DNA of 63,865 nt, filler included, from Hausera hauseri (taxonomy: Eukaryota): assembly GCA_046269625.1 (NCBI GenBank). It is 11 parts of 11 records of this genome, joined end to end, with 100 filler letters (N's around TTAATTAATTAA, not from the genome) between each part and the next. Parts side by side here need not be neighbours in the genome. Positions count along the whole stretch, not along the records: positions 28,329 to 33,291 come from JBJURY010377035.1; 10 more parts are not named here. One strand, 5' to 3'. A program made the translations under genes and the position numbers. The notes beneath the pieces were generated by a model. The model did no database searches. It was not told where the DNA came from and saw only the letters and a list, made by a program, of their open reading frames with translations. Below are positions 6,544-57,792 of the stretch, piece by piece. Numbering within the stretch: position 1 is the first letter of the stretch; each line of letters begins with the position of its first letter.

Positions 6544-6599
6544 TGTACTTGGAAAATCATTTATGCACTGATTCCATCTATAGCCAGTTGCTTTTTGAT

Positions 6600-8545
6600 T
6601 TAAAAAGGCGCTGAATGGAAACAGAAAAGAAACAAGAATGAGAAGACGGTAATAATGATAAGGATAAACCTCCAGCAAAGATGATAAACGTGAGAAGACT
6701 TAAACCAGTAGAAAATACTAAAAAGACATGGAGTCTGATTACTACCCGAAGTAAGAAGCAAAGAACCTTACTATCAGATATTTCACAAATGAGAAGGTGG
6801 AACGAGTACCCATTGTAACAGCAACGCTTTATGTCTCCTGACGAATGTATAAATATACATTGCTCGAGTGACTTAGACAACTATGATCCTAAGCATGTAA
6901 AGCTGATGTTTTGTCCATCCGCCCCAAAGGCGGCATTGATAACTAGTATAGGTGGAGGTAAAATAATACCAAGAACAGTAATTTGGATAGATGAATACCC
7001 CATCACCGCAATAATAGATACAGGGGCATCTGTCTCAATGATTTCGCGTAAACAGTTGCCCGAACAATTAAAGAAAAAGCTACAGAAACCTATGGAAGAC
7101 ATCACGAATGTCGGAGCATTTGGAACTAAAGTACAAGTGAAGGATTTGATCAAATGTGAGACAAAAGTTCTTAACCAAAAGTTTGAACAAGAATTTAGAA
7201 TAATAGACGAACTGGTGGCTGAAGCTATACTGGGGTGTGATGCACTAGCAAAATTAACGAACATGTGTATACACTTGGAGACCTAACAAATCCAACCACA
7301 TCAGAAAACAAAGAGTGAGAAAAAGGACACTGTATCCATTAATGAAGATGTGCGAATACCAGCTAGAACAGAGATTATACTCAAAGCTTTGGTAGAAGGC
7401 CGAGATGAAGGAAATGTATACATCGAACCAAAGGTAAACTTTATGGATAAGAATGAATTATGGATTGCTCATGTGATAGACAATATTCGAAAACAACAAG
7501 TAATTGTTTGAATAGCCAATACCTCAAATAAACCTAAGCTATTGAGAAAAGATATAAGAATTGCCTATATATATAGTAAAAGATATAGGCAATAATGAAA
7601 CGGAAGCCATTATCTCTACTGTACAGAAGTTGTCGGAATTCATGGAAAAACAACGACATAAATTACGAAAAAAAAGTGGAATACGATTAAAAAATGAACC
7701 AATAAATAAATTGAAAAGCCATCTCAACAAAAATAAGAAAATAACAAAATTCGTTAAGACCCCTATTAACTGGAACGATTATGATTTGTTTGGCAGGGAT
7801 AGGACATTGACAGATGTGGAGAAAGAAGGTATAATAAAAATATGACACTAATGTAAAAAGGTATTTTCAGTAGATGAATATGATATGGGAATAATACCAG
7901 TAATCAAACATGGAATTAAATTAAAGGAAGGAATGAAGACTCCCATTAAAAAGAGACCGTATAGGCTTAATTATGGTAAAAGAGAAAGGGCAAAAGAAAT
8001 AATAGCTGAGATGAAACAACATGATATAATTCGACCAAGTAATTAGCCATTGGCAGCTCCAATTGTAATGGTACAAAAGAAAGATGGGTCAATTAGAATG
8101 TGTGTGGATTACCGTGCCTTGAACGAAGTAACTATAGACAACACTTATCCGTTATCCAGAATCGATGAAATATTGGATAAATTGAAGGATAAAACGTTCT
8201 TTACTACGTTAGATTTACAAAAAGGATTCTGGCAAATAGAAGTTTAAGAAGAGGATAAACAAAAGACGGCTTTTGTAACTGCTTATGGACATTATGAATT
8301 CAACAGGATGGCATTCGGGATAAAAAATGTTCCAGCAACATTTCAACGGCCATGGATATAATTACAATGGATGCTCCACATATAATATGTTACGTATACG
8401 ATGTAATAATTGCATCAACCGATTATAAGCAGCATAACTAGTATATTAAATATATTTTGGAGAGGTGTGCATTACTTGGAATAAAAATTGGTCTCAAAAA
8501 TGCTGTTTTGCTCGAACCGAAGTAGACTTTTTGTGTCATAAATCA
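6600..8545 (+). mobile_element. Degenerate Ty3/gypsy pol remnant (A-rich family): aspartic protease and N-terminal RT
   Basis: [82 protein letters not shown]. Confidence 0.93.
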
Positions 8546-8882
8546 ATATTTCGAATTAAGCAAAATGTGCATTTAAAGCCTAATAAAGCGGAAATCGATA
8601 AATCCATAAGCGGGACGGGATAGGAAGTCATGTATGTTGAACTGGAATATAATGTTAGATATTCGAATTCGAGTGTACAAGTCGAATAATTAGCTATTTG
8701 AACTCGATTATTCGGTCAAACATGCATTATTCGAAGAATCTAATGACGTCATTCGATTCTCCATGGTCGAAGACCTTAAATTTGGCACCGCCGTGTATTT
8801 AATTCAATTGATGCATTAAAACAAAAGTGCATTAAAACCATAACGACTTTCGTGCCAAAGGAAAATCAAAGTTGCAGTTCAA

Positions 8883-11320
8883 ATGTGTATAGCACATGTG
8901 TAATACACAACTCTCAAGATTGCCACAATACCGTGAGGATCTATTATGGGCACAGATTCAATAGGATCATTTATTATATCTGCCCTGGATGTAAGGTTGT
9001 ATGTGATGGAGAATACATACAGTTTTATGATGATCACAAACATCATTTGACTGACTTTACATCAAAGTCAAAGATGGTCATCTTTAATGAACATAAGCCA
9101 GTTGCACAGCCTGCAATACAGCCAGATGCAGGACTAAAACGCGCATCAGGCGCATCAGACGCAGCGGCTCCAACAAAGAGTCAAAGACAGCGGCCAGTTG
9201 ATGCTGCAGCATTAAAGAGGAAATTCTGCAAGCATGTCATTGATGCAACTGGTCAAACAACCATCAAGGAGTTCGTGAAGTACACAGGAAGAAACAGAAG
9301 GAATTCTCCAGGACAACATAGCTGAGCTCAAGGCCATTAAGGCTAATATGAAACTTGAGGCCACATATGTCAATGTTGATGGCGAAGAGTCCAAAAGGGT
9401 CTTCAAGACCAAAAATTAGACCCATTTTTGAAGCCACCAATATAGTAGAATGGCTGCATGAAGAGCATGCAAAGCTGATTCGTGAAGCCGATGAGATCCA
9501 GGATAAGAAGATCGGATGGACTCTGGCAACCATCAAGAGATTGCTTGTGTATGTGCACAAATTCCCTCCCATGCGGGGTAGTTCATATATTCAACTCCTT
9601 GTTTGGATCGCTAATAAAAAAAACGTCAATTTCCATAATAATGACAACATGTGTTTCATGTATGCTATTTTATCAAAACTTGTGCCTGATCAACATGATG
9701 CTTCACGAGTTTGGCAATATAAGGATGTGCAGCACAACTATGACTCCCAATGTATTACATTCCCTCCATCCTTATATGAAATTAAAAAGTTCAGCCGAAT
9801 CAACAACATATCAACCAACATCTTTGGATTGGATGAGGAGGACAAATTCTATCCCCTTCAGATATATTATAATGAATTGGAAGATCGAAGGGATTTGCTC
9901 CTACTAGACGATGGATAAAAGAAACATTATGTTTGGATCAAGAATTTTGAGCGTCTAGTCCGATCCCAAATTACGAATCATCATGGACAAATAGAAATAT
10001 GTAAGCGATGCCTGTCTCATTTCAGTGGCGATTCAGCAGTGGACAAGCTTGCAGAGCACAAGATTTACTGCAACAACAATTATTGTGTAAGGCCAGAATT
10101 TCCCAAGGAGGACTACATTGAATTCAAGGAGTTCGAGAAGAAGATCAAGGTCCCAATAGTTATCTATTGCAACTTTGAAGCTATTCTCTGGCCAGTTCAC
10201 TGCTGAACTCTCATTATATTGCATATATGCCAAAGTACTGGACATTGAACCATATCTATTCAGAGGTCCAGGTGCAGCAGCACATTTCATGAAACGACTT
10301 GAAGACATGGCTCATAAGCTTGAAAAAATGCTGAAACAACATAAGTGCGTCATGTGCATGTCTTGGATGAAAAAAGAAGTATGGAGCAAGGCAACATCGT
10401 GCTGCCTGTGCGACAAGTCATTCACCAAGGAAAATTGGAAAGTCAAGGATCACTGCCACTTTACAGGTGCATATCGTTGCGCAGCATGTAACAACTGCAA
10501 TTTTCGCTGCAAAACATGCACATATGTGCCTGTAGTATTCCATAATCTCAGCGGCTATGACAACCACTTCAAAGTCCAAGAATTAGGCAACATTGATTGT
10601 AATATAGATATAATCCCCAGCAGTGAGGAGAAATATATCACTTTCACTAAGTATGTTGGTAAAATCAGATTTCGATTTAATCGATAATTTACGATTAATG
10701 TCGTCTTCATTGGACAGTTTAGTGAAGAACCTGCCTGTTGAAGAACTCAAGGAAACGAAGCGATTCTTTCCGGATACCTCTGACCTGGGTAAAAGGAAAG
10801 GAGTGTTTCCCTATGATTATATAACATCATGGTAAACACTAAATAAGTCCTCATTACCAAGGATGGCTTTTACAGCCAGTTGTCGGACTGCAATATGAAT
10901 AATCAGGACTACCAACATGCTCAGGACGTCTGGCAGGCATTCCAGTGCAGAACATTAGGGGAATATAGTGATATATATTTCCAAACAGATGTGATGCTGC
11001 TGACAGATGTCTTTGAAAGTTTCAGGGATGTCACAATGAAGAGCCGTACTTTGGATCCAGCTCATTTCTTCACGGCTCCAGGGATGAGCTGGGCAGCAAT
11101 GCTGCGCTATACAGATATCAGCCTACAAATCATTAAGGACTACGACATGATCCTTATGATCGAAAGAGGCATTAGAGGAGGAATATGCCAAGTCATTCAC
11201 CAGTATAGTGAGGCCAACAACAAATATATAACTGAATACGACACAACAAAGGAGTCATCATATATTTCTTACCTGGATGCCAACAACTTGTATGGATGGG
11301 CAATGAGCGCCCCATTGCCA
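8883..11320 (+). mobile_element. Polinton/Maverick (adintovirus-type) protein-primed DNA polymerase B, frameshifted, truncated at the contig end
   Basis: GSSYIQL, NNDNMCFMYAIL, endonuclease-VII-like CxxC...DHCHFTG...ACNNCN, VVFHNLSGYD, KGVFPYDY, DVMLLTDVFE, GIRGG and motif A YLDANNLYGWAM. Confidence 0.92.
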
Positions 11321-12290: not shown

Positions 12291-14978
12291 CTGCAGATGT
12301 TTCATGGCGCCGTCTTGGATGTATTTAATGGCGACCTGGTAGACGTAAAAAGAATAGTTTAGACTTTTTGTAAAAATGTTTATTAGTTCAATAAAGGACG
12401 TGTTTGTGTAAACAGACAAATATGATACCAGAAATAAGAAAATTAAACCAACCGGCAACGAATCACTGATCCGTTTCCCTGCGTAGACGAAGCCAAAGCC
12501 TCCTGCTCCGATCGTCTGGAGCTGTTGGTATTTGGCCTCAAAATCAGCTACAAGTAAAAATAGATAACAGGCAGAATAAATCAGTATGAATCACTTTATT
12601 TCATCTCAGTCTTTATTATGAGTTTTATTGTTTGCTTTTGTTTTTATTTAAGTGAAAGTACTTGAAAAAGACCATCTCAAAGTTTAAAAGATTCTGGCTA
12701 AAAGTAGAAAAACATTGGTTAAAGGTTTTAAAAGGCTAACTAGAAGCTAAACGTATCAAAATCCTGTCTAAAAAAGCCTAATTATAAATAAATGCTATGA
12801 ATAACAAAAACAGGAAAAGCAAAGGCCTAGATAAAAGTTAGATTTTTAAAAGGCAGTTAAAGGCTAAAATTAAACAGAAGATCTGCTAAAAGTTTGTATT
12901 AGGCTAACTAAAAGCTAAAAAGAGAAAACTGCTGACAAAATATCTACAATTTTAGAGCAAAACACTAGCTTAAAATTAATATTAACAAAAGGCTAAATTA
13001 AGGAATAAATAAGTCAACTTCAGCCAACAGAAAAATAAAAAGCTGTTTAGAAGCTAAAAAACTGCACAGTGCTGCAAAATGCTGGCTAAAAGTTAAAACT
13101 AGAATAAATCAGGTAAAATAAATCTCAGAGAACAAGAATGGAAGAGATCTCATTTGTATGGGTAGTGTTGTATTATATTATATTATATTATATTATATTA
13201 TATTATATTATATTATATTATATTATATTATATTATATTATATAACCTTAAGCAATAGCGGGTGGATAAAATATATATGTATTTTTTTATTTTCTTTTTA
13301 AGACCAAAGTATTTATTCGTGCTGAATTAGCAGTGACAAAATGAAACAGTGTGTCAGCTCACCTCTGCTGGAGTGCTGATCAGGGGCTGAGGAGCTGCAG
13401 GAACTCTGCTCTGGCTCAGCGACTCGTGGTCTTTTAACAGAGGCCTCTCCTCCACCACTGGCCTTCCGTTTCCTGCCGCTGGGCTCAGAACTGGAGCTGA
13501 TGACAATAACGCTCCTGTCCCTGCTGCTCCTTCTGGGGGCCCTTGGAATAGGGCCACTTAGCAGGACGACACCAGAGCTGCTGGAGCTGATGGTAATTAC
13601 TGCCTGCGAGCTGCTGGAGTCGTCTGCGCTGCTCTGGTTATCTATAATTATAAAAAGTCCAGTTAGACAATGTTATTTATCACATATTGTTCTTACTGCA
13701 CTTTCAGTAAGTAAGACTTTCACCGCTTATGTAAGAAAACAATCTATCAGACTAAAGACAACCTTTATTGACTTGCTTGTATTATACAATAAATACATGA
13801 ACATCATCAGAGAAGAAATCATTTCTCTAAAGCCTCTGAAGGATTCCCATTCTAAAGATATAAATTAATCAAAACCAGAAATATTTCTGGTAAAAAACAA
13901 GTTTGTACTGAAAAACATGCTAATGACATTACATTTTGTGAATATAAACACTTCTACAAAACATTCACCAGGTATGTTCCTGATTTTTATACACAAAATA
14001 CAAGCTTGTTCATTGCCAGTGACTGATGTTAATTTGTGTTCTAAACAGTTTCCTAGGAGATGGAACATTTCAAAAAAAGTTTGCCAAAAGTTAGCTAAAT
14101 GCTAATGCAAGTTCCTAGCTTAAAACATCAAAAGGCTAAATGTATTCAAAAGTAACAAAATGCTAACTAAAATCATACAAAAGTTTACCAATCACAGACA
14201 AAACTTTGCTAACAGCAAAAAAATCATATTAAAAGTAGCAGAAAACTAGAAAAAATATGGAAAATTTGAAAAATGCCACGTTAGCTAAATGCTAATGCTA
14301 GCTGCTAGCTTAAAACATCAAAAGGCTAAATATATTTAAAGTAATAAAGTTTTAGCTAAAAGCAGACAAAAGTTTAGTAAAGCATGTAAAAGTAGCATAA
14401 AACTGGTAAAAGTGAAGGAACATTTGAGAAGTGCCAGAGTTAGCCTTAAGTTAGCTAAATGCTAATGGTAGTTCCTACGTTAAAACTTCACAAGGCTAAA
14501 TGTATTTAAAATTAACAAATTGCTAACTAAAATCATACAACACTTTACCAAACACAGACAAAACTTTGTTAAAAGCAAAAAATCATTTTAAAAGTTGCAA
14601 AAAACTAGAAAAAACATGGAAAATTTGAAAAATGCCAGTTTAGCTAAATGCTAATGCTAGCTGCTAGCTTAAAACATCAAAAGGCTAAATGTATTTATAA
14701 GTAACAAAATGCTTACTAAAATCATAAAAACTTTACCAAACACAGAGAAAACTTTGCTAAAACAAAAAATAATATTAAAAGAAGCAGAAAACTAGAAAAA
14801 AGATGGAAAATTTGAAAAATGCCACGTTAGCTAAATGCTAATGCTAGCTGCTAGCTTAATACAAGAAGAGGTAAACTTTATTTAAAAACAAACAATGTTA
14901 TAAGCTGAATGTTTGGTTCTGACCCAGTGGATTTCCAGAGAGCAGAGGTGGATGACTGGCTCTACTGGTAGAGGTCAT
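12291..14978 (-). CDS. pim: Teleost-type Pim-related Ser/Thr kinase, 5' part (exons 14924-14978, 13363-13641, 12453-12547, 12291-12335)
   Basis: Phase-compatible GT-AG exons give ...SSRADFEAKYQQLQTIGAGGFGFVYAGKRISDSLP|VAIKYIQDGAMKHLQ. The Gly loop, VAIK lysine and exon borders match PIM kinases. Confidence 0.88.
13170..13243. repeat. (TATTA)n microsatellite
   Basis: About 14 tandem TATTA units inside the pim intron. Confidence 0.97.
14085..14860. repeat. Tandem repeat with ~170-190 bp units (about 4.2 copies)
   Basis: TTAGCTAAATGCTAATG...CTTAAAACATCAAAAGGCTAAAT recurs near 14090, 14280, 14450, 14640 and 14826. Confidence 0.9.
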
Positions 14979-27430: not shown

Positions 27431-27655
27431 GACTTCGGTTAACACCATATAATCACTGTGAGGAGGAATTGAAACATATATTAAGGCTTAAATTTAATTC
27501 AAAGGTAATACAGTAAACAGTCAACAGAAAGTCAGGAAATTCAGAAAAGAAGGAAAATAAGGCTCATTTCCCGAATGAAGGAGATAAATGTTACATAAAC
27601 TTTTGTAATAAATATCTTATGGATAAATCAATCACCCGGTGATGTTGACGTCGGA

Positions 27656-28228
27656 ATGGTAGAGACGCGATCTACTAACATGGCGATCAATGCTTCAAGA
27701 GACTTCTTCGAGAAGAAATTGATGCCCAAAGAATTCCAGAAAGGTGACAACGTGCAAACCTTTATTGGAAAATGCCAGAGATACTCTGACTTTATAAAGA
27801 TGTCGGAGTCGGATCGGGAAACGGCGGTCCTGTGCCTATTGGCGGACGAAGCATAGGAAAAATACCATCTGGTGAGCCAGAAGGTGAAAGGGTACCAAAA
27901 CCAGTAGAGAAGGGCCTTTGCAAAACCCACAACGCTGTGCCGAGATCTGCGGGACGCATTAGACTACAGAATGAATGGGGCAGAACCGGACGTTTACTTC
28001 AACAAAATCGAATAGCTGGTGAAGGGCATCCTTAGCCACAAAATAACAGCGAAAGCTCTAACAGAGGAATTGATGATCCACTGTTGCGATATTCCGGAAA
28101 TGAGAAAGGAAATCTACCACAGTGACGAAAAAACGTCAAACAAATCAAAGAGAAATACGGAAAGTCCACGAAGTGGCAACAAAGACGGAAGAAATAAACA
28201 CAGTCAGAGAATACACTAGAGAGGGTCG
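27656..28228 (+). mobile_element. Degenerate gag-like ORF of a different LTR element, nested after the truncated RT
   Basis: MVETRS...PKEFQKGDNVQTFIGKCQRY...; helical Gag-like sequence with in-frame stops, starting shortly after the preceding RT breaks off near 27430-27458. Confidence 0.55.
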
Positions 28229-29099
28229 NNNNNNNNNNNNNNNNNNNNNNNNNNNNNNNNNNNNNNNNNNNNTTAATTAATTAANNNNNNNNNNNNNNNN
28301 NNNNNNNNNNNNNNNNNNNNNNNNNNNNAAAGGGCTCCAGCACGCTGACAGACCTGTTCTCTTCCCACAACCCAGAAAGAAGAAATAAAAATGTGCATAA
28401 CTTATTATCAACTGACTACATGGAAACGAGTCGGGGCAGCTGACTGAACTTCTTAAACACCACGGCTCACTCGAAAGTTTAAACGGTCAGGTCCCGTCTC
28501 GGTGTTCCAGTCTTTACAGTACTTTCCGTGAAACGTCCGGGTAACTCCACCTCTGTTTTTACCGTCATCTCAGGGCCTCCAGCCAGCGGTCTGAGCCGGT
28601 GAGACCAGCTCCGTGTCGGACTTCTGCAGCGGAGGTCATGTTCTGCAACACACTCGCTTCTCTTTAGTTTTTTTTTGGTCTATTTCACCATTTCTATCCA
28701 TCGCCTTCATCCATCAAACTCATTAATGGGGATAGTTTTCTTAGTCTTAGAAGTTCATTTCAAATTTTACTTTTGGTCTTATGGGTCGTTGTTGTTCGTT
28801 TTTATCATCAGTTATGTACGTAGGTTTGTATTTATAGGGTGTCAAGTCAATATTTTGTTTCATCTGTTGTAATTGATGTATAGGGTAAAGTCCTGTATGT
28901 ACTACGTATCGGGAGGGCTGAGAGATTCACTAATGGTTGCTCGTTATATAATTGCCAATGATATTTATTCACAGGGTCTAGATGAGGTAAGTCTGTACTT
29001 TTGCTTTCGTGACTTCAATGCCAGTTGTTTAATACTAGTTATTCGATTATGCTTTGCCTTTACTTTTATTTGATCATATTCGATATTGTTATCATTAGG

Positions 29100-30958
29100 T
29101 ATACTATACGGGGAATCTTTTCCGTCTTTCCTTTGTAGAATCTTCCTTTTCCATCGTGCGTCCTGGTTTGCTAGAAAACAATTTGCTACTGCAGGTATGA
29201 CAGCTATTAGAATTTTTCATCAGCATCCTACTGCTGCATGTATTCCATAGGCCTTACTTAGTGCTGTAAATACTGTACGTATAGCACTAATGATAAAATA
29301 TATGGCTAGAAAACCGGACGCTGCTTGGCCAAAATATAAAAATTTTCTTTACATCTTTTCCATTAGGTTTTCCCATTGCGGTGATTCTTCACCATCCCAC
29401 ATTACTCTCCTGGTCAATTCTATTATAACTCTGTCTCTGTTGAGGAAACAACAGCATTAGTCGGTAATCTTCTACATTTTGTTGTGTGTAGATTCCTCCT
29501 TGTGATATTCCTGTTAACGGTTCGAACTTTTGATTCCTGTGCAAATTAATCAAACTTAGTGTCTCCTTATTGGACACGGGTTCTCTTTTTGGTATTCTAA
29601 TCCATTTTTCGTTGTCAATCTTAAACATTGGCGACGTATTGAAGGTACAATTGTATAGTGGAGTAGGCTTCCATTAATATCTAATAGTATTCTAATCACG
29701 GGCATACAATATCTTGCTTCTGCATGATAAATTACAGGCAACTCCATTGTACATTTGTCTACTGGCCTAATTGATACTTCTACCTTCTTACATTCTATTG
29801 TTATCAGTACTTCGCCCATCACTCTTCTGATAATCCCATCGTCAAAGGGCATTACTGGCGCTACCATGTCCAGATTCGTTATTACCAATGTTATTTTGTT
29901 ACGCATTATTTCGTAGTTCAGCTTGCATTCATTCATTATTATCTCTCGATATAAGCCTCTTATCTCTTTCCTTGCATAATTGGTTAGAAAATCAATCTTA
30001 TTATCAAAATATTGTGCTAACTTTATATATTTCTTATCCATTTTAGTTTTTGCTCCAGGTATTTCTTTTGACGATAAGAAAAAACCTTATAGTTGGTTCT
30101 CGATATTTCTTCACTGCATTTATTTACTACTCCAGTGATTTTGAATCGCATCATGTCTTCTGTATTTTCTGAATATACAATTGTAACCACTTCCGTCATC
30201 TTGACTTCCTTTGTTCTTTCTTTATATGTCGCTATCTCTTTATTCGCCGTTTTTTCCACTGTCTTGTTAAACTTTCCTTCTTTAATAACGTCAGTTGGCA
30301 TTTACTGGCAGAGGTTTCCCATGTCATCATCGGCTCTCCAGTATCGTATTCACCGTTATCATACTCACATTCACCCATAGTCGTCATCACTTTCGTTTGA
30401 GTCAAATAGTCCTTCATATACTTTCAACTGGATCTGATAATCTTCTATGGTTACCGTTTTAGGTGCGATGGTACCTCCAACGTCGTAATCCACTCCTTTA
30501 CAAGTGCCTTCCATCATTTTGTCTATCCTTCCTGCCCTAAAAATTCTGGTGTATTTTATTCTATTTCAAACTGCCGGTATATGCGCGTTTTGAATAGTTA
30601 TTATGCCAGTTTTAAAAGCATCCTGGCATTCTGCTCGTGATATTATTATCGGTACGAAAGGTGTTGTGGGCTTAATTATGGCCAAATTTCCAGAGTAAGA
30701 GGCACAATTAAAAAGGAAGAATGATTTCTTTACATAACATTCTCTAATTTTCGCTTTTATGAATTCCGATTCTTGATATACCCAGTAGGTAAGACCACTT
30801 GTCGTTGTTAGCTGTTCCGAGTCGGCTTCTGGACATTTTTCTAAATCAACTAGAGAATACTTTTGTCCTTCGCTAGGTTTAGAGCAATCATAAGCTACTA
30901 TACCCACAGCTTTTGGCATTAATAATGACGTTATTAGGAGAATCTGAAGAATCTCCAT
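29100..30958 (-). pseudogene. Chuvirus (Jingchuvirales)-like class III fusion glycoprotein in env position, degenerate
   Basis: Signal peptide MEILQILLITSLLMPKAVG then IVAYDC...YSLVDLEKC; GEVLITIECKKVEV...CTMELPV; GGIYTQQNVEDYRLMLLFP; TM region FLYFGQAASGFLAIYFII...AYGIHAAVG. Confidence 0.8.
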
Positions 30959-32122
30959 TATTGACATACATGTTATGCCTGGTCTACAGCTGTTTGGCTG
31001 CATCGCCGTTGGCGTATCTATTAATCTTCCTCGTTCCCCTGACCTCACTATATTTTTCATTAGGCTGGTCAGCCATGCTCCTCTACATTGAACTCAATTT
31101 CCTAACGTGTCTTTCAAAATCTTTACGGCTGTCTTTATATTTCGCTCAATTTCTTCTAGATTTTGAGTCTGGTGATTAATTACTATTATTTTGTAGAGGA
31201 GATAGGATATATCCGTTTGAGCTTTCTCTCGCGTGATTCCAGTTACAAACATTTTCTCTAAAATATTTAATTAATGCAATTCATTTATTCTTTCTTCATC
31301 TAGATTCTCATAAAACTGCCTACTTATTCGCAGCATACAATTACGTAATTTTGTGAATAATTCGTCTGGGATTATTACCTGCATATCAATTGAGGCAAAT
31401 GATGTATGTAACTTAGCCAGTAGAGTTCTTAGTAATGGGTCTATATTCCTCTATTCGGGAGTACCATTTGTTCCTACTAACAATAAGCGACATACCATTT
31501 CTTAGTTTATGTCTTTCTTATTACGAATGTCACTTATCTTCGTTCCTTTTGGCTTACCTCTTCTCTTAGCTTCTGTCTGGACTGTAATGTTTTGAGTATC
31601 GCCTGCGGAATTTTCTTCTGTTCCCTGTGGTTCTATTTCCCTTAAGATATTATCCACTTTTGCCTGTGCTCTCGCCTCTGGATATATTTCGGTTATAGCT
31701 ATCGGGTTGTAGTTCTCGTTTCTACATCCAATTGTCAATAATTTCTCATAGCTATGTAGTGCCCTTCCATAATAATCTAATCCCTAAGGACTTCCTTAAT
31801 AAAATGGTTCCAACTCCTCTATCTATTCTCGTAGAGTTTGTATGTCATATGTTTTGTTCATCCTGATGACCCTCATATCTTGGTTTCCTTCTCTTACCGT
31901 TATCCTGTTAGTTTCATTTCTTCCTTTCTCATCTTCGGCAGTTTTGGCTAAAACTGTCCTTGCTATTTCTTTTACAGGACTAGTATCTTGGGCTAGTAAG
32001 ACCAATTGTGGTAAAATTTCATTCATCCTTTCTGCTGTTACTTTGTTAGTAATTACTTTCAACATCGCATCAGTCATTTTATCTACATCGATTATACTAT
32101 TGGGATCGACAATCATTACTGC

Positions 32123-33291
32123 TTAAATAATACCGTCTTCTTCCCGATCTACACCTGGATTCTTTATTACTTGATCTAATATAGCTTCATCAAATATTGG
32201 TATAGCTTGAGCTTCGTCCTTGTCAAATGAGGGTGTACTGAGGTTACTCTTCTTTCTTCCTGTTTTCTTTTCCTTTCCTACCTCTTCCCTCTCTGTTGAT
32301 GTTTCTCTTGATTCAACATCTATGTCGATTATTTTATTATTACCTTTCTTTCTTTCTTTATAAGATACTTGTTTCTCCGGTTGATCTCCTATCATATAAA
32401 TATTATTTTCTTTCAGTCTGTGCTGATGTCTTCTATAATCTTTCAATTCTATTTCTAATTGCTTCTTCATGCGTTGGGATAGTGTATCATTTATATAATT
32501 AACACTTTCTTTCTTTTTATCCTTTTTCTTAACTTCGTGTTCACTAACACTATCGTCCATTTCGTATTCTTTATCGGATGATTTATTTGACGTGGCTGAT
32601 GTGTGATCTTTCTTATGTTGTTTATTTTTATTACTTGATTTCGAGGAGTCTCCTCTACGTTATCTGCATGATTTCGCTATATGTCCGTATTTATTACAAT
32701 TAAAATATTTCAGTCGTTCTTCGGAATCTATGTTCGGTAATGCCCTTCTATTTTTTTTTATTTCCTCTTATAACTTGTCTTTTCTCCATCGTTTCGTAAA
32801 TTAAATTTTACTTTCTTTTCTGCGTCTGACTCGGCTTCTGTGGCTGACGTTTGTAAATGGCTTCTATTTCTTTCATAACGTTTGGTACTTTTGAGTATTA
32901 TTGTTTCTTCTTTTATCATAACCATTATTGCTGCTTTTAGACTTATTCCACCTATATAATTCCTCATCTCGTTCGGCTTTTCGCGCCTTTCTTATTGCTT
33001 CTTGAAACGTAAGTGGATTTGCTTGTAAAATTATCGTCCTTAGCCTTTCTTCTAATCCATATTGGAATTGGGCTAACAATGCGTCAGGATATGCTCTCGC
33101 TGCAAGTTTTTCCAATGCACTGACAAAGTCCTGGACTGTTTCATCTTTACGTTGCTTTCTTATGAACTCCTCGATTCTCCCCTTTCCAGAGGGATCTATT
33201 AAAAACTTCTGAGACAGTCTTTCTTTAATTCCCTTCCTGTCCTTCTTGTCCTCATCTGACATTTGGAAATATATCACGAGAGCAGTCCCTT
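32123..33291 (-). mobile_element. Degenerate Ty3/gypsy-type gag upstream of the env-like gene
   Basis: RKQRKDETVQDFVSALEKLAARAYP...QFQYGL...PLTFQEAIRKA; degenerate CCHC knuckle YFNCNKYGHIAKSC at about 32665-32706. Confidence 0.8.
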
Positions 33292-34842: not shown

Positions 34843-36189
34843 CGAAACCATTATGCAAACCCATGACCGAAAGTGCAACATAAACGTTTTTTCCAAGATG
34901 GCCGAAGAGAACATACTGATAAAATTGCTTTTACTCCATCACTTTCATATGCCGAAAAATTGCTTTTAAGGAAGCATCGTAACAATCAACTTGTAGCAGA
35001 AGATATGAAGTTTATTTTCAGCCGGCTTGCAAATAGTAATAGTAAAGCAATGGAAGACCAAAAATTGATGGACACATTTATTGATGCAGATAAGTCATTA
35101 CAGTACAATTCAACAGTGGCTGCTGTTGACATGTGCCACCTAAATATTTCAGCAATTTCAGATCTTTCGTTACAAATGTCTGATATGTCAAATTTATCTG
35201 AAAATAATAATAACTCAACTTCTGACTTTAACACTGAAGATATTACTGAGCCATTTGCGACACCAAATGGGCACCATCATATACAGGAGGATACGACAAA
35301 AGCCTCAGTAAAAGATGTTCAACAAACAAATGTGGATAAAGATAATATAGTCCGTAAATTAGAAATCCATGATGATATTCACACCAATGAAAGAAAGCAG
35401 CATAAGGAAGAAAACCGTATTAAGTCTCTAAACTCTGGACGAATGTTTAACGATCGTCCTCATTCTAGTCGTCGAATGTCTGCCAGAAGTAGTAGAGGCG
35501 GAAAAATAACTACACAACCTTCAACACTTCTGAATATTTTGGCAGATTTTAGCACATCTTCCATATTAATTTCAGTCAAAAAATTCATCCAATTTTATAT
35601 CTAATGAAAAGCCAAGATCAACAAGTACTAATTCGTCAATATCATAAAAATGAGGTATAATTTTTACAAATTACCTCCAAATTCATGGAAGCCTACTCAA
35701 GCATGGGCTGATAGTTCAATTTTGTCAAACGATGAAATGATCTCTGGAAATTATGATTTCAGAATGGAATATGTAAATAATTGATTGCTATTGAATGTAA
35801 AATTTGAATAAAGTTTCCCGTTTATTAAATCTGGTTATTTCTTCAATGGAATTTATTATATACAAATTTCTTGCTAATGTTAAGAATAAAGGAATGGTGT
35901 CAGAATATCAACTATCAAAAATGCAGACTGATCGGATTATATTTCATCAGTACGATAAAAGTGATAATTTGGAATATTTTATAAATTGGAAATCGGTGGA
36001 TTATCGATCTTTGATTCCGGAATCGGCAGAAAGTGCTTTTCAACCACTGTCCGAACGAGCTATAGCAACCTACAAGGACGGTCTTCGTTACCGAACGTTT
36101 CCTGATACAGAAAATCCATTTTTCGACAAAGTCCGATATTCGAACCGATCACGTTAGACTATTTATTTGGTTCTCCGGATTACAATTTA

Positions 36190-38016
36190 TTTTTACCCGA
36201 CATCATCGGATGTAGTGGATTTGTAAAATCAGACGTAAAAAATTTTTTATTCCAAAAATTATCAGCACAACTGACGTATTCCGATGGAACGTTAAATTAT
36301 GTTACCGACGTCTCAGCAAACGGTACACTTTCATTTCCAATGTACAACAACGGTAATTTTATTTTCGGCCATGTTTTTCCAAGTAATTATTCGGTTCATT
36401 TTAAATCGGAAACGCACGATGGAAAGGAAATTGAATTGCTTGATACTGTTTACGACTTGAGGGTGTTTAATGATAACATCATTATTAAGGATTCTTTTAT
36501 AATTCGAGGCTATCCGGTATTTGGTGACGTAAAATTTCAATCAGATCGCGTTCAAGATGTTTACACATATTTATTTGCCAGACATTAAAAGAAAGAAATT
36601 TGACTATGACAAATATCGATGTTTACAATCGGAAAGTGTCGACATTTCTGTTTATAGTTATGATTACATTTGTAAAACGGTAATAAATCTAAATGGCGAA
36701 TTCATGTTTCCACTGTTACCCGGTGAAAAATATTTCATTTTGTCTGTTTATTCAACAAATCTGTCATCATTCGACATTGAATCGACGAAACATGAATTCG
36801 AAATCACGAGCAATTCCACTGATCTCAGATCGGTATTTACCGTTACAGGATATTCCGTTTATGGAAAGCCAATTACAAACGAGTCAATTCCAATGCGGAA
36901 ATTTACATCAATGGAAATCTCGTGACGAAAACATCCAACCCTGGAATGTTTGACATTTGCGGTATGAAGAAAGGTAATCACGAATTTCTCGTTGTTGTTG
37001 ATCGGTACATTTTTAACACACTGACAATGTCTTTTGATCCGAGAGATCCAGATTTAGGATCATTCTATCCTGACAAAATTGCCATTTGTGAATCAGTCAT
37101 TATTCATTCTGCACAGTCCAACATAAAATTATTTGGTGATGAATTTAACGGACTAAAATTGTCCATTGCCATTGTCAACAGTAGCAAACCATTTAGTCTG
37201 ACAGCTTTAAAGTTAAAATCAAGTAAGAAAATAAAATTCGATAATAAAAATACCATTTTGGATCAATTCTGTTTCTATACAGAACAAGGCCATAGTTTAA
37301 TTCGATCATTGGCGGATTCGTCATTCGGCAATTTTAATTTGGCCCCAAGTAAAATGCCGATAAGTAAAAATGACGATAGCTCAAAAATGTTCATTGATTC
37401 ATTACAAATCCACAGAAGATTATCGAAAATCTGTTTACCGAATGTCGGTAAATATGAACTGAAAATCGAGACGTGTCAACTAGTTGATAATGATATTCAA
37501 TTTGTCGATACGATCGAATTGTGTCCGTATCAATTTGATTATAATAATGGCGAATGTCATTTGAAAATTAATAATAAACAATTTCATGTGCGAGTCGATT
37601 TGACATTCGTCGGTAATTCGTCAGTGAGTGATATGGAGAAATCGGATATCTGAGGATTGGTACGAATTGGTGAATTGGATCCTGTGGAAATTAATGTTGA
37701 ATGGATGACGAATTTGACAGGTCAATTCCAATTCTGGATATTTCCGAATATTCCGGCAGAAATTTCGTTGAAGTCGTCGATATTTTTATTTACACCAAAT
37801 AAATTACCATTTGATGTTGCTGTGGATACGATAAAATGTATATCGGTTGGTGGTAAATTTGTATTGGAGAAGGGGTCATTTATTGAAGGATATATTGAAC
37901 AACGTGTGGAAAATGTTACTATCGACGTTTGTAGGAAGTCTCATTTTAATGATTATATTTGTATCGTTATGAAATTGCACCAAGAACAATTGGAATACGT
38001 TCTTCAAGGCAAATAG
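36190..38016 (+). pseudogene. NOMO: Divergent Nodal modulator (NOMO)-like copy, frameshifted and internally deleted
   Basis: DIIGCSGFVKSDV...GTLNYVTD...FPMYNNGNF resembles NOMO1 VVGCGGFVKSDV...GTLKYQTD...IPLYDKGDF; NGEFMFPLLPG...VFTVTGYSVYGK resembles DGSFSFYSLPSG...VFHVMGFSVTGR (recalled sequence). Confidence 0.8.
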
Positions 38017-42395: not shown

Positions 42396-42619
42396 GAATT
42401 ATGGTAGGCTTAACTTTTTGAAGCTTCACGGTAGCATGCGTCATAAGTTAGTGTGGGACACGGTAACTGGCATGGTAAGATAGTGTGGGACACCGTAGCA
42501 TGCGTGTCTTGTCTTGTGATAAAACCCAGAAGAATTGAAAATGTTCGAACCGTTTACCACATAGGCTGTTCCTAAGATGTGACAAGAAAAAAATTTCGGA
42601 AACTTATTTCTGAATATAA

Positions 42620-44040
42620 AAGTTGCCGACATAAAAATTTGTTAACATGAAAACAATTTTGCCTATAAAAAGTCGATGTCATGAAAAATTACCTACATGA
42701 AAAGTTGATGACATGAAAATCTGCCAAAACGAAAAATAATCAACATGAAAAATTGCTGAAAAAAAGTTTCCAACATGAAAAGTTGTCGACACAAAAAGTT
42801 TCCATTATAAAATGTTATCGACATGAAAAGTTGTCATGAAAAATTACCAACATGAAAAGTTGTTGTCATGAAAAATTGTCAACATGAAAAGTTGATGTCA
42901 TGAAAAGTTGCCAATATGAAAAGTTGTCGACATGAAAAGATGCCAAAGTGAAATGTCGACCTGAACAGATGCCAATATGAAAAAATGACCGACATGGAAA
43001 GTTGCCGACATAAAAAATTGGTAACATGAAAAGTTGATGTCACGAAAAATTATCATCACGAAACGTCAGCAAGAAAAATTGCAACAAGTAAAATTGTCGA
43101 AATGAAACAAATGCTAACATGAGAAGTAGCTGACATGACAAGTTACAAAAATAAAAAAATTGCCAACATGAAAAGTTTCAAATATGAAATGTTGTCGACA
43201 TGAACATTTGTCGACATGAAAAAATGGACGATGTGAAAAGTTGTCGATATTAAATATGACAGATATAATAAGTTATCGACATGAAAAATATGGCTGACAC
43301 AAAAAAATTGATAACTGACATGACAAAAAATGGCTGACATGTAAAGTTATCCACATGGAAAGAAAAATGGCCGACATGACCAAAAAATATGGCCGTAATA
43401 AAAAGCTTTCGATGTTAAAAAACGACCCAAATGACAAAAAAAAATCAGACATTACAAATGGCTGACATGAATAATTGTCAACATGGAAATAAAGTGCCAT
43501 CATGAAAAAAATGTCCGACATAAAAACATGACCAACATGACAAAAAATGGCGGACATGAAGTTATCGACATAAAGAAAAGACGATATAAAAATGGCCGTC
43601 ATGACAAAAAATGGCTGACAAAAAGTTATCGACATGAAACAATGGCCGACATGATAAAAAGAAAAAAAATGGCCAACATGGCAAAACATGTCTGACGTAA
43701 AAAGTTATCGATATGAAAGAAAAATAGCCGAAATGACAAATAGAAACAAAATGGCCGATATAAATTTCTGAAATGAAAAGTTATCGACATAAAAGAAAAT
43801 TGACATATGAAAATATGGCCGACAAGACAAAAGAAATGTCTAATATGAAGTTATCGATATGAAAAAGTGGCCGACACAACAAAAAACTTGGCCGATATGC
43901 CCAATAGAATGGTCGACCTGACAAGTTATCGACATTAAAAAATGGTGGACATGAAAAAATGGAGGACATGATACAAATTGTCCGACATGACCAAAAAATG
44001 GCCGACATGAAAAGTTATGACCTGAAAAATGGTTGACATA
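42620..44040. repeat. Degenerate ~20-bp minisatellite (AAAAGTTGTCGACATG / AAAATGGCCGACATG)
   Basis: Dozens of diverged GACATGAAAA-core units in one orientation. Confidence 0.9.
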
Positions 44041-49396: not shown

Positions 49397-52020
49397 TTAC
49401 CGATTTACATCCAGAAAGTCATTCAGCTCATCTGGTACCACGAGATCGACTGCCATCAGGTATCCGACTGAGCCTGCCATGTCTTCTCGTGGTAGGTTGA
49501 CAATTATGTCGTCCAGATCTTGTCTGTCGACTACCCATTCAAATGAAACGTACGGCAAGTGTTGCGAAATCGCCCAGCCGTACAAGTTATTAATATCAAT
49601 ATACAGCAGCGATGTGGTATCGGTAGCACTGACCTGATGCTTGTTGACAAATGTCATGTCGCCGCGAATACCCAAATCAAAGGGTCGGTACATTTCTGGA
49701 TCTTGCAGCAGCTCAGTGTCTCGATCCAGTGAAATTAGAGCTGACGCCAAACTCATTGACGGTATTGAATAAAAGTTGAGTGGCTCCAACCTATCTTCCA
49801 CTAGTGCTTTGGTTTGAAATGCTTGAAAAACGTTGGCTAATAAGTACACATCCAGTTTAAGATACTGGAGTATAATTCAACATGTTTCTACAGACCGGTT
49901 CTGTCCAAGATTCTTGTCCTCTCCGATATTCATCTTCTGCGGTACCTGAGCATCGCGGCGGTAATTTCTCTGCTGTCCGGAGTCGCTCATATGATGTTGC
50001 AAAATCATATGGAAATATGCCTTTGCTGCGTGCAATATGTGCAGGGAACTGAGTCAGTGCTATCGGTACACCTGGCAAGGCATTTACCAGCTTTGCCAAT
50101 GATTCATTGAGAAATTGCAATGAATCAAGGAAGCGTATCTGGAATTGGTTTACGCGTGCCGACAGCGGTAGGTTGGGATTATGGACAGTTTCCAGTGCGG
50201 AAAGCCGATAATAGCCCATTGGAGAATATGATGAAAGTCAACCCCGGAAATTATAAAAGAACATCGGCATGAATTGCACGCTGCTCCAAAGTATCGACCG
50301 GTGAAATGGTCGTGATCCGGTACGAGCCGTTCCTGTGCATCAAACGGTATTATTTTGTTGCACAGATAGCATTCATGGGTGACAGCGAAAAGCAACGGTT
50401 GATATTCGTCTGCCCAAATCAATGGCTTATTGCAATTGCTGCGATATCACGGCGCGATTTCCGTTTCCACTATGATTTCCAACTACTGCAGGAAATCACA
50501 TACACAGTTCCAACCATGGAAAACGTAACACTACGGTTTTTTGGCAGCTTTTATTGGTACTAGCAACGTACCGACGGCAATTGGAACGTGCTTTTGATCG
50601 TATACATTGTGCCGAGGTAGAATTGCTTCGATATCGGCATACACCACATATTCCGGACTGTCTATTTTAGACCAATCACTAAATCTGAGCTCCTTTTTGA
50701 CGGGCATGACGTACATTTTTGTCTTTGATGCGTTTTGCCTGCATAGCGTGACAACTTTCTCGCACGTTGTTTCCTATCTGAATCTATGCAGACATACAGG
50801 ACACCATTTGCATTGTATTCGCTTTTTGATGAATTGGTCATGCTCCATGTTCAACAGTCTATCCAGATTTGTCACTGCAACGTAATGAAAATTTTCGGCC
50901 TGCTCCAACAGCAACAAATTTACCGAGCGTCCATTCGGGATCCGATTGCGATAAATTATGTCCACATGAGGGTTCTTATAAATTTCTTCGTCTTCCGATA
51001 TTCCAACTGCTGTGTTGTACCGGGAAACGTTGATTGACAGCGTCAGATTAAGCCGTTCAAAAGCCGGAATGGTTTTCAGTTTCATCGGCATCCAGCATTC
51101 ATGAAATTGCAATTCGGAAAAATACTGCCGATACTGATTTGGACGATTTGCATGATATCTGTTCACTTCGTTGTACTTCAATACAGCCAGAATGCTGTAC
51201 AGAAAAAAGTATGCGCCGTCAGTATTTTGTCCATTCACTACCTCCAGGACTGCTTTAGAGATGCAGGTATGGGTATGAATTACCGTCCAGACAAATATAC
51301 TGTGTCACTCGACTTTATTATGATAAAGCCGAGTGTGACAATTTGTATAATTCTCCATCCACTACCCTTTTCGGTATAGTTGGCGATTTTCTCATCCAAC
51401 TTTTCGCCTACATCGGCAATAAAATTTTTGGAATACAGTACGGCTCGATGTGACTGATACCATTGTTTCCTGTCACCTTCAACATTTTCAAATTCTGCAA
51501 GTGCATAATATTTTACTTTGCAATTGTTGAGTTTGAATTTCTCCACCTCTAATTACAACCGGCTGCGCACACTGGACGGAACATGCCTCAGCTGTAGTTT
51601 TGTTGTTCCCAATATGTTTACTTTCACGTCCACGAACGATTTGTTTAGATCGTACTTTACAGTAATGGAAGGTTCCTGCTGTTGTATTTGCTCCTGTTGC
51701 TGCTTCTGTTCGGTACTGTTTCGGATGTATACGTCAAGACTTGTGGATGCTTGACGTTTCCTGCTTGTTGAGGGGATACTGGTTTTTCTTGTCGCCATCA
51801 CTATTTGCTTTTTGGACTGTTGAAACTTGTTCAAGTGGTCCTTGTGAGTGTTGTAGAATTGTTCGTAGTTGATTTCATCAACTATAGAACAATTTGGACA
51901 AACGTAGACCCGTTTACCGTACGCGGTTCTGGCGCCATAGTACTGCTCCATTACACTGGCAGCCATCAACGTCATGCACTCTACTACTACAGTATCGCGG
52001 GTATGTGAGTCAATGCACAA
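49397..52020 (-). mobile_element. Second Polinton/adintovirus-type pPolB, fragmented, C-terminus missing
   Basis: GSGWRI, FFLYSILA, HYVAVTNLDRLL, YVVYADIEAIL, DHDHFTGRYFGAACNSC, FLDSLQFL, KGIFPYDF, YIDINNLYGWAISQHLP. Confidence 0.92.
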
Positions 52021-56458: not shown

Positions 56459-56691
56459 ATGACTGTACTTTTTCTCAGTTTGAATTTGAAATTTTGCACA
56501 TTGTAATATACCCAGTTGTAGAGAAATTCAAACAAAGGTAACTATTATATAGTATAATAATTTATAGAATATAACAAGTTGTTTGGATAATTTTTCATTA
56601 GACAAACAACTAACAAAAGTCAACATATAAAATATATATCGACAAAATTGTTATCGATACTTCCGGGTGGCTGAATGATGATATAAATAAT

Positions 56692-57792
56692 ATGCCAATG
56701 ACTTCCAAGTTACAACGAATCGCTAGTAATTCCGAGTTTTCGGAAATAAGTGATGGTAAAGACTGTCAGATTGATCACATGTTTTATTTGGATGAGTTTA
56801 TTGAATCCATTGAGTCTTTTCAACGATTGAATCCAGGAGGACGAGCCAAACTGACGGAATTGGACTGTCGTGCCTTGTGTATGATTGCTAAAACTATGTT
56901 CCTTTGCGAAAACTTACTACTCGAAGTCACTGCGCCGATTAAAATTTGTGGAGATATCCATGGACAAATAAATGACCTAACACGAATATTCGAAATGTGC
57001 GGCCATCCTTCGCAACAGAAATATTTATTTCTCGGCGATTATGTCGACAGAGGGACAGCTTCGTTGGACGTGATTTGTCTACTGTTAGCATACAAAATCA
57101 AATATCCTAGAAATATCTACTTGTTACGAGGAAATCACGAATCCCTTTACGTTAATAGAGTTTACGGATTCCGAAATGAAATCATAGAACGTTTCAATTC
57201 AGCAAAAGTGTGGAAAATTTTTAACTTTGTTTTTGCGACTCTTCCGATTGCCGCAATTATCGAAGGGTGCATATTCTGTTGCCATGGTGGTATATCACCG
57301 GAATTCATGAGTTCCAATTTCGATTTGAGAAAAATGATCAACAGCGTTTCGCGACCTTTGGAAATACCTCCAAACGGTTTTGTTTGCGATTTACTCTGGG
57401 CCGATCCCATTGATAGAACAAGTTCCGAAACTCCCTTTGGATGGATTCCGAATTCTCGAGGCTGTTCTTTTTCTTTTGGTATTGATATTGTTGACGAATT
57501 TCTGGATAAGTTTGGATTTGATTTAATCGTACGAGCTCATCAGGTTGTAGCGGATGGTTATGAGTTCTATGCTCAAGGTAATTTGGTTACAGTATTCTCG
57601 GCATCGAATTACTGTGGAACATTCAATAATGCCGCCGGTGTTTTTAACTTGGATCTTCGTTCAAATGCATCAACTTTCAACGAATTCTTTTTAAGTGGAG
57701 GCTTCCACATTATTCCACCAAATCGTAGTTTGGCAAATACATGGATTCACAAAAACAAGAAAAAGGAAGTAAAAAAGTCGCATTCCAAATAA
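56692..57792 (+). CDS. PPP1C: Intronless, divergent PP1-like Ser/Thr protein phosphatase catalytic subunit
   Basis: Intact 366-aa ORF with GDIHG, GDYVDRG, LLRGNHE, HGGISP, DLLWADP, RAHQVVADGYEF and FSASNYCG. Confidence 0.92.
   Translation: MPMTSKLQRIASNSEFSEISDGKDCQIDHMFYLDEFIESIESFQRLNPGGRAKLTELDCRALCMIAKTMFLCENLLLEVTAPIKICGDIHGQINDLTRIFEMCGHPSQQKYLFLGDYVDRGTASLDVICLLLAYKIKYPRNIYLLRGNHESLYVNRVYGFRNEIIERFNSAKVWKIFNFVFATLPIAAIIEGCIFCCHGGISPEFMSSNFDLRKMINSVSRPLEIPPNGFVCDLLWADPIDRTSSETPFGWIPNSRGCSFSFGIDIVDEFLDKFGFDLIVRAHQVVADGYEFYAQGNLVTVFSASNYCGTFNNAAGVFNLDLRSNASTFNEFFLSGGFHIIPPNRSLANTWIHKNKKKEVKKSHSK

Follow-up and report, generated by a model that had tools for sequence, protein, structure and literature searches.

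Known elements with class III glycoproteins

Ty3/gypsy elements that carry a gB-type envelope glycoprotein (Env) and have the gene order GAG-ENV-POL are described in Nematoda, Bryozoa and Platyhelminthes (Chary and Hayashi, eLife 2026, PMC13524379). According to the consulted parts of the same paper, 114 arthropod gypsy elements have a glycoprotein with homology to the chuvirus-like type known from BEL/Pao elements of mosquitoes, and the env-pol order is also flipped in the non-canonical endogenous retroviruses of nematodes that it cites (Sacco et al. 2022, doi 10.1099/jgv.0.001739). The element analysed in the present study is located in a 63,865-nucleotide stretch of the Hausera hauseri genome (assembly GCA_046269625.1), referred to below as the window. 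The window is composed of 11 separate contigs of 4.2-9.4 kb (positions 1-63865), joined by spacers N44-TTAATTAATTAA-N44 with no linkage across them, and the element is found in contig 6 (28329-33291), on its minus strand. It combines a Ty3/gypsy-type gag, a region designated X and a class III env, and is likely to be a dead, pol-deleted copy of a Ty3/gypsy GAG-ENV-POL errantivirus, closest to the planarian (Schmidtea) group. In broader terms, its sequence places it probably among the derivatives of the flatworm-type GAG-ENV-POL errantivirus group.

The closest described elements, Smed_errantivirus_1-6 (Platyhelminthes C1a, PMC13524379), possess, as here, a Ty3/gypsy gag and a gB-type class III env located before pol, and their env has colinear domain I-II motifs and cysteines in common with that of contig 6. 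Unlike the contig-6 copy, which is decayed and has no pol, they are given in the consulted sections as intact, pol-bearing elements present in 1-215 copies. In those sections no Gag-Env fusion is described, nor any domain that separates gag from env.

Anakin, the BEL/Pao elements of mosquitoes with a chuvirus glycoprotein (Dezordi 2020, PMC7642597), resembles the contig-6 element as a long terminal repeat (LTR) element with a Monjiviricetes-type class III glycoprotein, and the excerpts used here describe defective copies as common (PMC7642597; PMC10084718). Its gag and reverse transcriptase (RT) are of BEL/Pao type, whereas the contig-6 gag matches Arc and Ty3 and the RT of a sister element in contig 2 is Ty3-like; the env is only distantly similar. 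Gypsy fragments beside chuvirus-derived glycoproteins, with no clear capture, are also reported in the accessible part of a later study (Dezordi 2023, PMC10084718). A literature search for a pol-less gag-env element, or for a ubiquitin-like domain in such an element, returned nothing relevant besides PMC13524379, as judged on the search entries alone.

A single Gag-X-Env reading frame

One frame dominates the minus strand of contig 6 from 33289 to 30060, with 20 stops in 1077 codons. The stops are distributed as 5 in 210 codons of gag, none in the 153 codons of a linker, 8 in 369 codons of X and 7 in 314 codons of the N-terminal half of env, while the alternative frames over the same regions hold 11-50 stops each (50 and 30 in the two other frames of X; 11 and 23 in those of the linker). 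Among 1.84e9 representative proteins, the sole phmmer match of X is P0003 (E 2e-41), a predicted protein of 1130 amino acids (aa) that is encoded on a 4786-nt contig and is a singleton in the protein collection. P0003 is an unbroken open reading frame (ORF) colinear with the contig-6 frame and comprises capsid, knuckle, linker, X, signal peptide and glycoprotein in this order; the two are identical at 310 of 920 positions (34%, E 2e-125) and, in the capsid, at an additional 55 of 114. Opposite 16 of the 20 stops of the contig-6 frame, P0003 has sense residues. Because P0003 is an uninterrupted colinear ORF and one contig-6 frame is dominant from gag into env, gag, X and env of contig 6 are parts of one predicted protein. 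The sequence-only reading had treated the middle region as unassigned ORF remnants; separate ORFs give way to the single frame, while the lack of an assignable family persists for X.

The gag region begins with the C-terminal part of the capsid (32960..33289, minus strand), which is 51% identical to P0003 residues 65-182; the contig edge truncates it on the 5′ side, at a point that corresponds to about residue 64 of P0003. A two-sequence profile made of the contig-6 copy and P0003 matches the Drosophila Arc2 capsid with E 7e-7. PF19259 Ty3_capsid matches the gag with E 0.02, under the cut-off. Arc is itself of Ty3/gypsy origin. A nucleocapsid CCHC zinc knuckle follows (32663..32704, minus strand), under the cut-off for PF00098 zf-CCHC in the contig-6 copy (E 0.007) and over it in P0003 (21.4 bits). 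The Lys/Glu-rich linker (32147..32659, minus strand), in frame with gag and X, is 30% identical to P0003. The element has, in sum, a Ty3/Arc-type capsid and a CCHC nucleocapsid, the combination of Ty3/gypsy elements (Metaviridae), which agrees with the earlier assignment of the gag as gypsy-type, not BEL/Pao. The Pfam matches of P0003 include the knuckle and the glycoprotein, with no pol domain and, at E<=1, no BEL/Pao family.

Further relatives are scarce in the libraries searched, which under-represent animal transposons: none was confirmed among 1319 candidates, and only P0003 was recovered among 5724 and again among 3801. Atlas searches gave no usable match, a weak result with the same under-representation, and none of 216 pattern matches in prokaryotic genomes was confirmed, a weak blank for an animal transposon.

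Class III glycoprotein and its described relatives

The env part begins with an internal signal peptide (30896..30952, minus strand), in frame with gag and X, seen as a hydropathy peak of 2.0 with a matching peak at residues 784-802 of P0003. The ectodomain of a class III (gB-type) glycoprotein occupies 29320..30904 (minus strand; PF24664, tblastn) and is interrupted by stop codons and, near 30086, by a change of frame. Past this point tblastn traces env in a second frame, in which 372 codons contain 8 stops. Together with those of the main frame this amounts to 28 stops and at least one frame change. PF24664 Monjiviricetes_fusion matches the N-terminal half with E 8e-17 and the C-terminal half with E 5e-31, and env is 50% identical to P0003 over residues 807-975. 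The class III assignment comes from this family profile and not from a modelled fold, the whole-protein model having a pLDDT of 34 and of about 25 over env. Two hydrophobic segments seen by hydropathy (29315-29259 and 29225-29169), a basic cluster and a predicted cytoplasmic tail lie at 28965..29315 (minus strand), with the frame ending at 28967. A gB-type class III Env with both a signal peptide and a membrane anchor is present; a signal peptide and a transmembrane region had been noted in the sequence-only reading.

The Jingchuvirales label attached to the glycoprotein in that reading is narrower than the evidence. PF24664 is a class-wide family that covers glycoproteins of the class holding Jingchuvirales, and a search with the P0003 glycoprotein, word-based and weak, retrieved no chuvirus protein among 3801 candidates.

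Motifs were compared with 229 class III sequences from the supplement of PMC13524379, of which 124 insect rows were covered by motif searches only. The motif VYQES, present in both the contig-6 copy and P0003, occurs in 3 of the 229 rows, all of them Schmidtea errantiviruses. Schmidtea rows also account for 3 of 3 occurrences of TGES, 4 of 4 of GMRF, 3 of 4 of ELRE and 3 of 4 of TNYK, always from the same six rows; TGES, GMRF and ELRE were taken from P0003, not from the contig-6 copy. A hand count, made with no tool, gives 26 identical positions of 65 between the contig-6 env and Smed_errantivirus_6, which falls inside the 27-64% identity range of the Schmidtea group itself in the supplement rows consulted. 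Three mosquito BEL (chuvirus-like) rows contain none of the searched motifs and their env is far more distant by eye; the nematode env rows of PMC13524379 that were compared are likewise unlike the contig-6 glycoprotein by eye and have none of these motifs.

Env precedes pol in a sister element

Contig 2 opens with a homolog of one part of the contig-6 env, namely the second hydrophobic segment and the basic cluster. Its first 28 codons (6544..6627, plus strand) represent the env tail of a related element, with 14 of 28 aa identical (E 5e-5). When the window was divided into 231 tiles, the two best-scoring ones both included this site; the match scores 85 and the next best 47, and none of 2000 shuffles reached 85. 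Downstream of the env tail, a protease (PR) and then an RT are encoded (6969..8349, plus strand; PF00077 E 4e-10 and PF00078 E 3e-17). From the start of the env-tail match to the catalytic motif of the protease the distance is 473 nt, and the protease frame, with 2 stops in 110 codons (P 0.02), is almost open as far back as the env tail. The best PDB match of the RT is the Ty3 RT 4OL8 (E 1e-37; next family 2e-25). An env placed directly after gag and before pol is observed, the two halves of this order coming from different copies (contigs 6 and 2). A programmed frameshift at the contig-2 env-pol junction is not supported, the one slippery heptamer being out of phase.

On this sequence evidence, contig 2 holds a divergent sister element in which env is followed by PR and then RT; it is neither the same copy as contig 6 nor a demonstrated helper. 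It had been proposed that contig 6 might be a non-autonomous partner of the similarly A-rich pol in contig 2. A real link is given by the env tail, and the fraction of A on the sense strand is similar (0.405 in contig 2, 0.413 in contig 6). A helper role is unsupported because only 46 of 84 nt (55%) of the env tail are identical and no shared LTR is visible; no LTR shared between contigs 6 and 2, or found elsewhere in the window, was detected. The absence of pol between gag and env, which the sequence-only reading took for an oddity, is ordinary because env natively sits between gag and pol in this group, as in the GAG-ENV-POL elements of PMC13524379 (consulted in part). That reading also named pol-containing copies as a reason to abandon it, and contig 2 is such a copy at the family level.

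At about 8700-11320 (plus strand), the contig-2 RT gives way to the decayed remains of a DNA polymerase B of protein-primed type (PF03175 E 5e-4, endonuclease VII E 0.01), which presumably belongs to a Polinton. Another gypsy-like family is represented by RT and integrase (IN) in contig 1 (305-3203) and by an integrase in contig 7 (33394-34167), both on the plus strand and 68% identical over 770 nt. This family is less A-rich, and its integrases are not assigned to the contig-6 element. Further RT remnants are found in contigs 4 and 5.

The 3′ end and the absence of pol in contig 6

Pfam detects no PR, RT or IN in the long frame of contig 6, and 6 pol motif patterns gave no convincing match in its three sense frames, a single chance zinc-finger pattern being located inside env. 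The arrangement of gag, a region of no assigned family and a glycoprotein on one strand, with no pol between, is confirmed in this respect, the strand being minus. The position where pol would begin is occupied by an A-rich non-coding stretch (28666..28964, minus strand). Its frames hold 7-10 stops each and are not more open than those of shuffled sequence, and no relevant Pfam match was obtained in 6 frames at E<=10. A by-eye likeness to a protease remnant near 28900 was rejected: in a comparison with the contig-2 protease that allowed for frameshifts, the score was 34, against a shuffle mean of 35, and 26 of 40 shuffles reached this score.

Beyond the stretch lie a candidate polypurine tract (PPT) followed by TG (28653..28665, minus strand) and a candidate 3′ LTR with a TG start (28329..28652, minus strand). 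The strongest composition change in contig 6 is a decrease of A from 0.41 to 0.24 at 28657 (support 28632-28667), which none of 500 base shuffles reached; the purine tract is inside the support interval. A poly(A)-like hexamer at 28406 is suggestive only. It is most likely that 28653-28665 is the polypurine tract and 28329-28652 the 3′ LTR, cut by the contig end, and the element probably extends beyond 28900 down to the contig end at 28329. Of the set of paired LTRs, primer-binding site, PPT and target-site duplication, contig 6 displays the PPT and 3′ LTR candidates only, its 5′ end being cut. The copy lacks the pol of its own, with PR, RT, RNase H (RH) and IN, that is usual in Ty3/gypsy elements, and hence is a defective derivative; nor does it have the intact ORFs, including pol, of the GAG-ENV-POL errantiviruses.

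The element could belong to the same family with its pol not deleted, 28329-28652 being an unrelated insertion or host DNA and pol either lying beyond the contig end or truncated away. Nested breaks are common here, as in contig 2, where the RT runs into the Polinton-like polymerase, no second LTR is seen, and purine-rich 13-mers are common on the strand (107 in 4963 nt). Only 2 of these, however, are followed by TG, and a purine tract with TG at the change point would occur by chance in about 1.5% of cases (2 sites x 36 nt / 4963 nt). A weak match, with a score of 45, between 28760-28640 and the contig-2 pre-protease spacer would fit an undeleted pol but is within chance (tile maximum 47, shuffle maximum 55). 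Besides, the boundary is preceded by about 300 nt of non-coding A-rich DNA, a position at which contig 2 has an open frame. This explanation seems unlikely, and the deletion of pol from the contig-6 copy is preferred.

Domain X

Domain X (31067..32146, minus strand; about 360-370 aa) consists of a helical N-terminal part (31925-32146), an alpha/beta part that is weakly ubiquitin-like (31685-31924) and a conserved helical C-terminal part (31067-31504), all on the minus strand. The identity to P0003 is 23-43% depending on the part. No Pfam family over the cut-off, PDB homolog or Atlas cluster was found for X. The middle part of the P0003 segment matches Pfam ubiquitin PF00240 with 17.2 bits against a cut-off of 25.4 (E 0.004), whereas the contig-6 segment has no Pfam ubiquitin match; the similarity of X to the RAD23 ubiquitin-like domain is weak (E 0.12). 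A basic R/K-G-R/K-P-K motif occurs mid-X in both copies (about 31547-31567, minus strand; P0003 582-589) and resembles an AT-hook.

A two-sequence AlphaFold model of X (pLDDT 44) includes the helical N-part, the alpha/beta part and an unresolved C-part; at this low confidence the strand order is beta-beta-alpha-beta-alpha-beta. The fold searches effectively covered residues 1-152. Foldseek found no match at E<=0.001 in PDB and BFVD with this weak model. VIA-align gave a best Z of 8.4, helical-repeat and integrase-binding-domain/TFIIS-N rows having Z 7-8; these rows, among them 6t3i (Z 8.0, root-mean-square deviation 2.8, 76 aligned), are under the chance level for helical bundles, and ubiquitin was not among the top rows. 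A viral nucleoprotein or matrix protein has no support from Pfam, PDB or BFVD, where no viral match was obtained with the weak model. Tentatively, X might be an accessory nucleic-acid-binding or assembly module that stays with Gag, because the AT-hook-like basic motif and the possible ubiquitin-like part fit such a role.

Other features of the window

At the end of contig 5, a gag-like frame was noticed by eye (27554-28228, plus strand); it has no Pfam match and is unrelated to contig 6. A second DNA polymerase B fragment is located at 49397-49876 (minus strand; PF03175 E 6e-5). An intact intronless frame of 392 codons at 56614-57792 (plus strand) encodes a divergent PP1-like phosphatase, the exact sequence of which is absent from the protein collection. 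Pieces of a NOMO-like gene lie in overlapping frames at 36106-37653 (plus strand; PF22898, PF23141), consistent with short introns or a decayed copy. The PP1-like and NOMO-like genes point to a eukaryotic source and to no narrower group, and no RNA markers were detected in the window. The window also contains a degenerate 16-17 nt tandem array of >40 units (42600-44040) and a 187-nt tandem repeat (14450-14887).

Origin and significance of the contig-6 element

The parent element would have been translated as one polyprotein from an LTR transcript. The internal signal sequence would send the glycoprotein into the endoplasmic reticulum, and cleavage by signal peptidase would leave Gag-X free in the cytosol. 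The chain would be brought back to the cytosol by a single membrane anchor, for which the second hydrophobic segment is the most likely candidate, given the basic residues behind it; there PR-RT(-RH-IN) would come next, either within the same ORF or through a frameshift. Nematode elements reportedly consist of one continuous gag-env-pro-pol ORF. Gag would assemble round the RNA, and the gB-type trimer would let budded particles fuse with other cells. The contig-6 copy would have lost pol from the interval that separates the env tail from the 3′ untranslated region, with the purine tract and the 3′ LTR retained. A pol-less copy of this kind could be mobile only via the enzymes of an intact element, and it would have decayed since.

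The earlier suggestion that the element is non-autonomous is plausible for the contig-6 copy, but no second copy of the element, and no second pol-less copy, was found among the 11 contigs. A propagated non-autonomous gag-X-env family, satellite-like or resembling a second segment and supplied with enzymes by gag-env-pol helpers, would agree with the clean end with its purine tract and LTR candidate, with an env frame complete to its own stop, with the P0003 ORF without pol, and with a pol-bearing relative in the same window. The single copy, however, is heavily decayed, P0003 is truncated and silent on pol, and contig 2, at 46 of 84 nt, is too divergent to serve as a shown helper. Internal deletions are common in single copies of LTR elements, which also counts against this explanation. 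TR-GAG and other plant pol-less non-autonomous LTR elements keep gag without pol; TR-GAG elements, as generally defined, have no env and are multicopy, whereas contig 6 is one copy with env. Such a propagated family is improbable for contig 6. Likewise improbable is a split of a lineage of flatworm-type errantiviruses into a gag-env-pol helper and a propagated pol-less satellite that encodes nothing but the particle, as a single Gag-X-Env polyprotein whose X would be an undescribed accessory domain carrying a captured ubiquitin-like module.

An independent capture of a chuvirus glycoprotein by a distinct gypsy lineage, as favoured in the sequence-only reading and considered here with X as a viral neighbour gene, is very unlikely: PF24664 does include glycoproteins of the Jingchuvirales class, and the X of the model is mostly helical and about nucleoprotein-sized, but the closest described envs are those of Schmidtea errantiviruses, the mosquito BEL rows consulted have none of the searched motifs, X has no viral match in Pfam, PDB or BFVD with a weak model, the weak P0003 glycoprotein search pulled no chuvirus protein, and chuvirus-like gypsy glycoproteins have already been reported, as the accessible part of PMC13524379 states.

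Several observations weigh against a pol-deleted copy of a planarian-type errantivirus. As for env, 4 of 5 motifs of the first set have no match among the 229 rows, apparently because they fall outside the published excerpts; TNYR occurs in 6 insect rows and 1 Schmidtea row of the supplement and MMRF in none; and the likeness to the Schmidtea env comes from a motif search and the eye, with no tool alignment or tree. The link to contig 2 consists of 28 codons at a contig edge, for which nhmmer gives only E 0.57 at the DNA level. RNase H and integrase of the element's family were not seen, being absent from contig 2. P0003 ends mid-glycoprotein and hence is uninformative on pol. The candidate LTR is present in a single copy, and the purine-tract rule was chosen after the site had been seen.

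With these points taken into account, a dead GAG-ENV-POL errantivirus copy remains the likely identity of the contig-6 element. The main outcome is negative in that a new capture of an envelope is not supported; the element joins the sparsely studied GAG-ENV-POL errantiviruses as a new member. It indicates that a single polyprotein of this group can unite Gag with a gB-type Env and contain an internal signal peptide. Domain X, conserved between two distant copies, may be an accessory protein particular to the lineage. Should pol-less copies turn out to be multicopy, they would constitute an animal non-autonomous LTR element keeping both capsid and fusogen.

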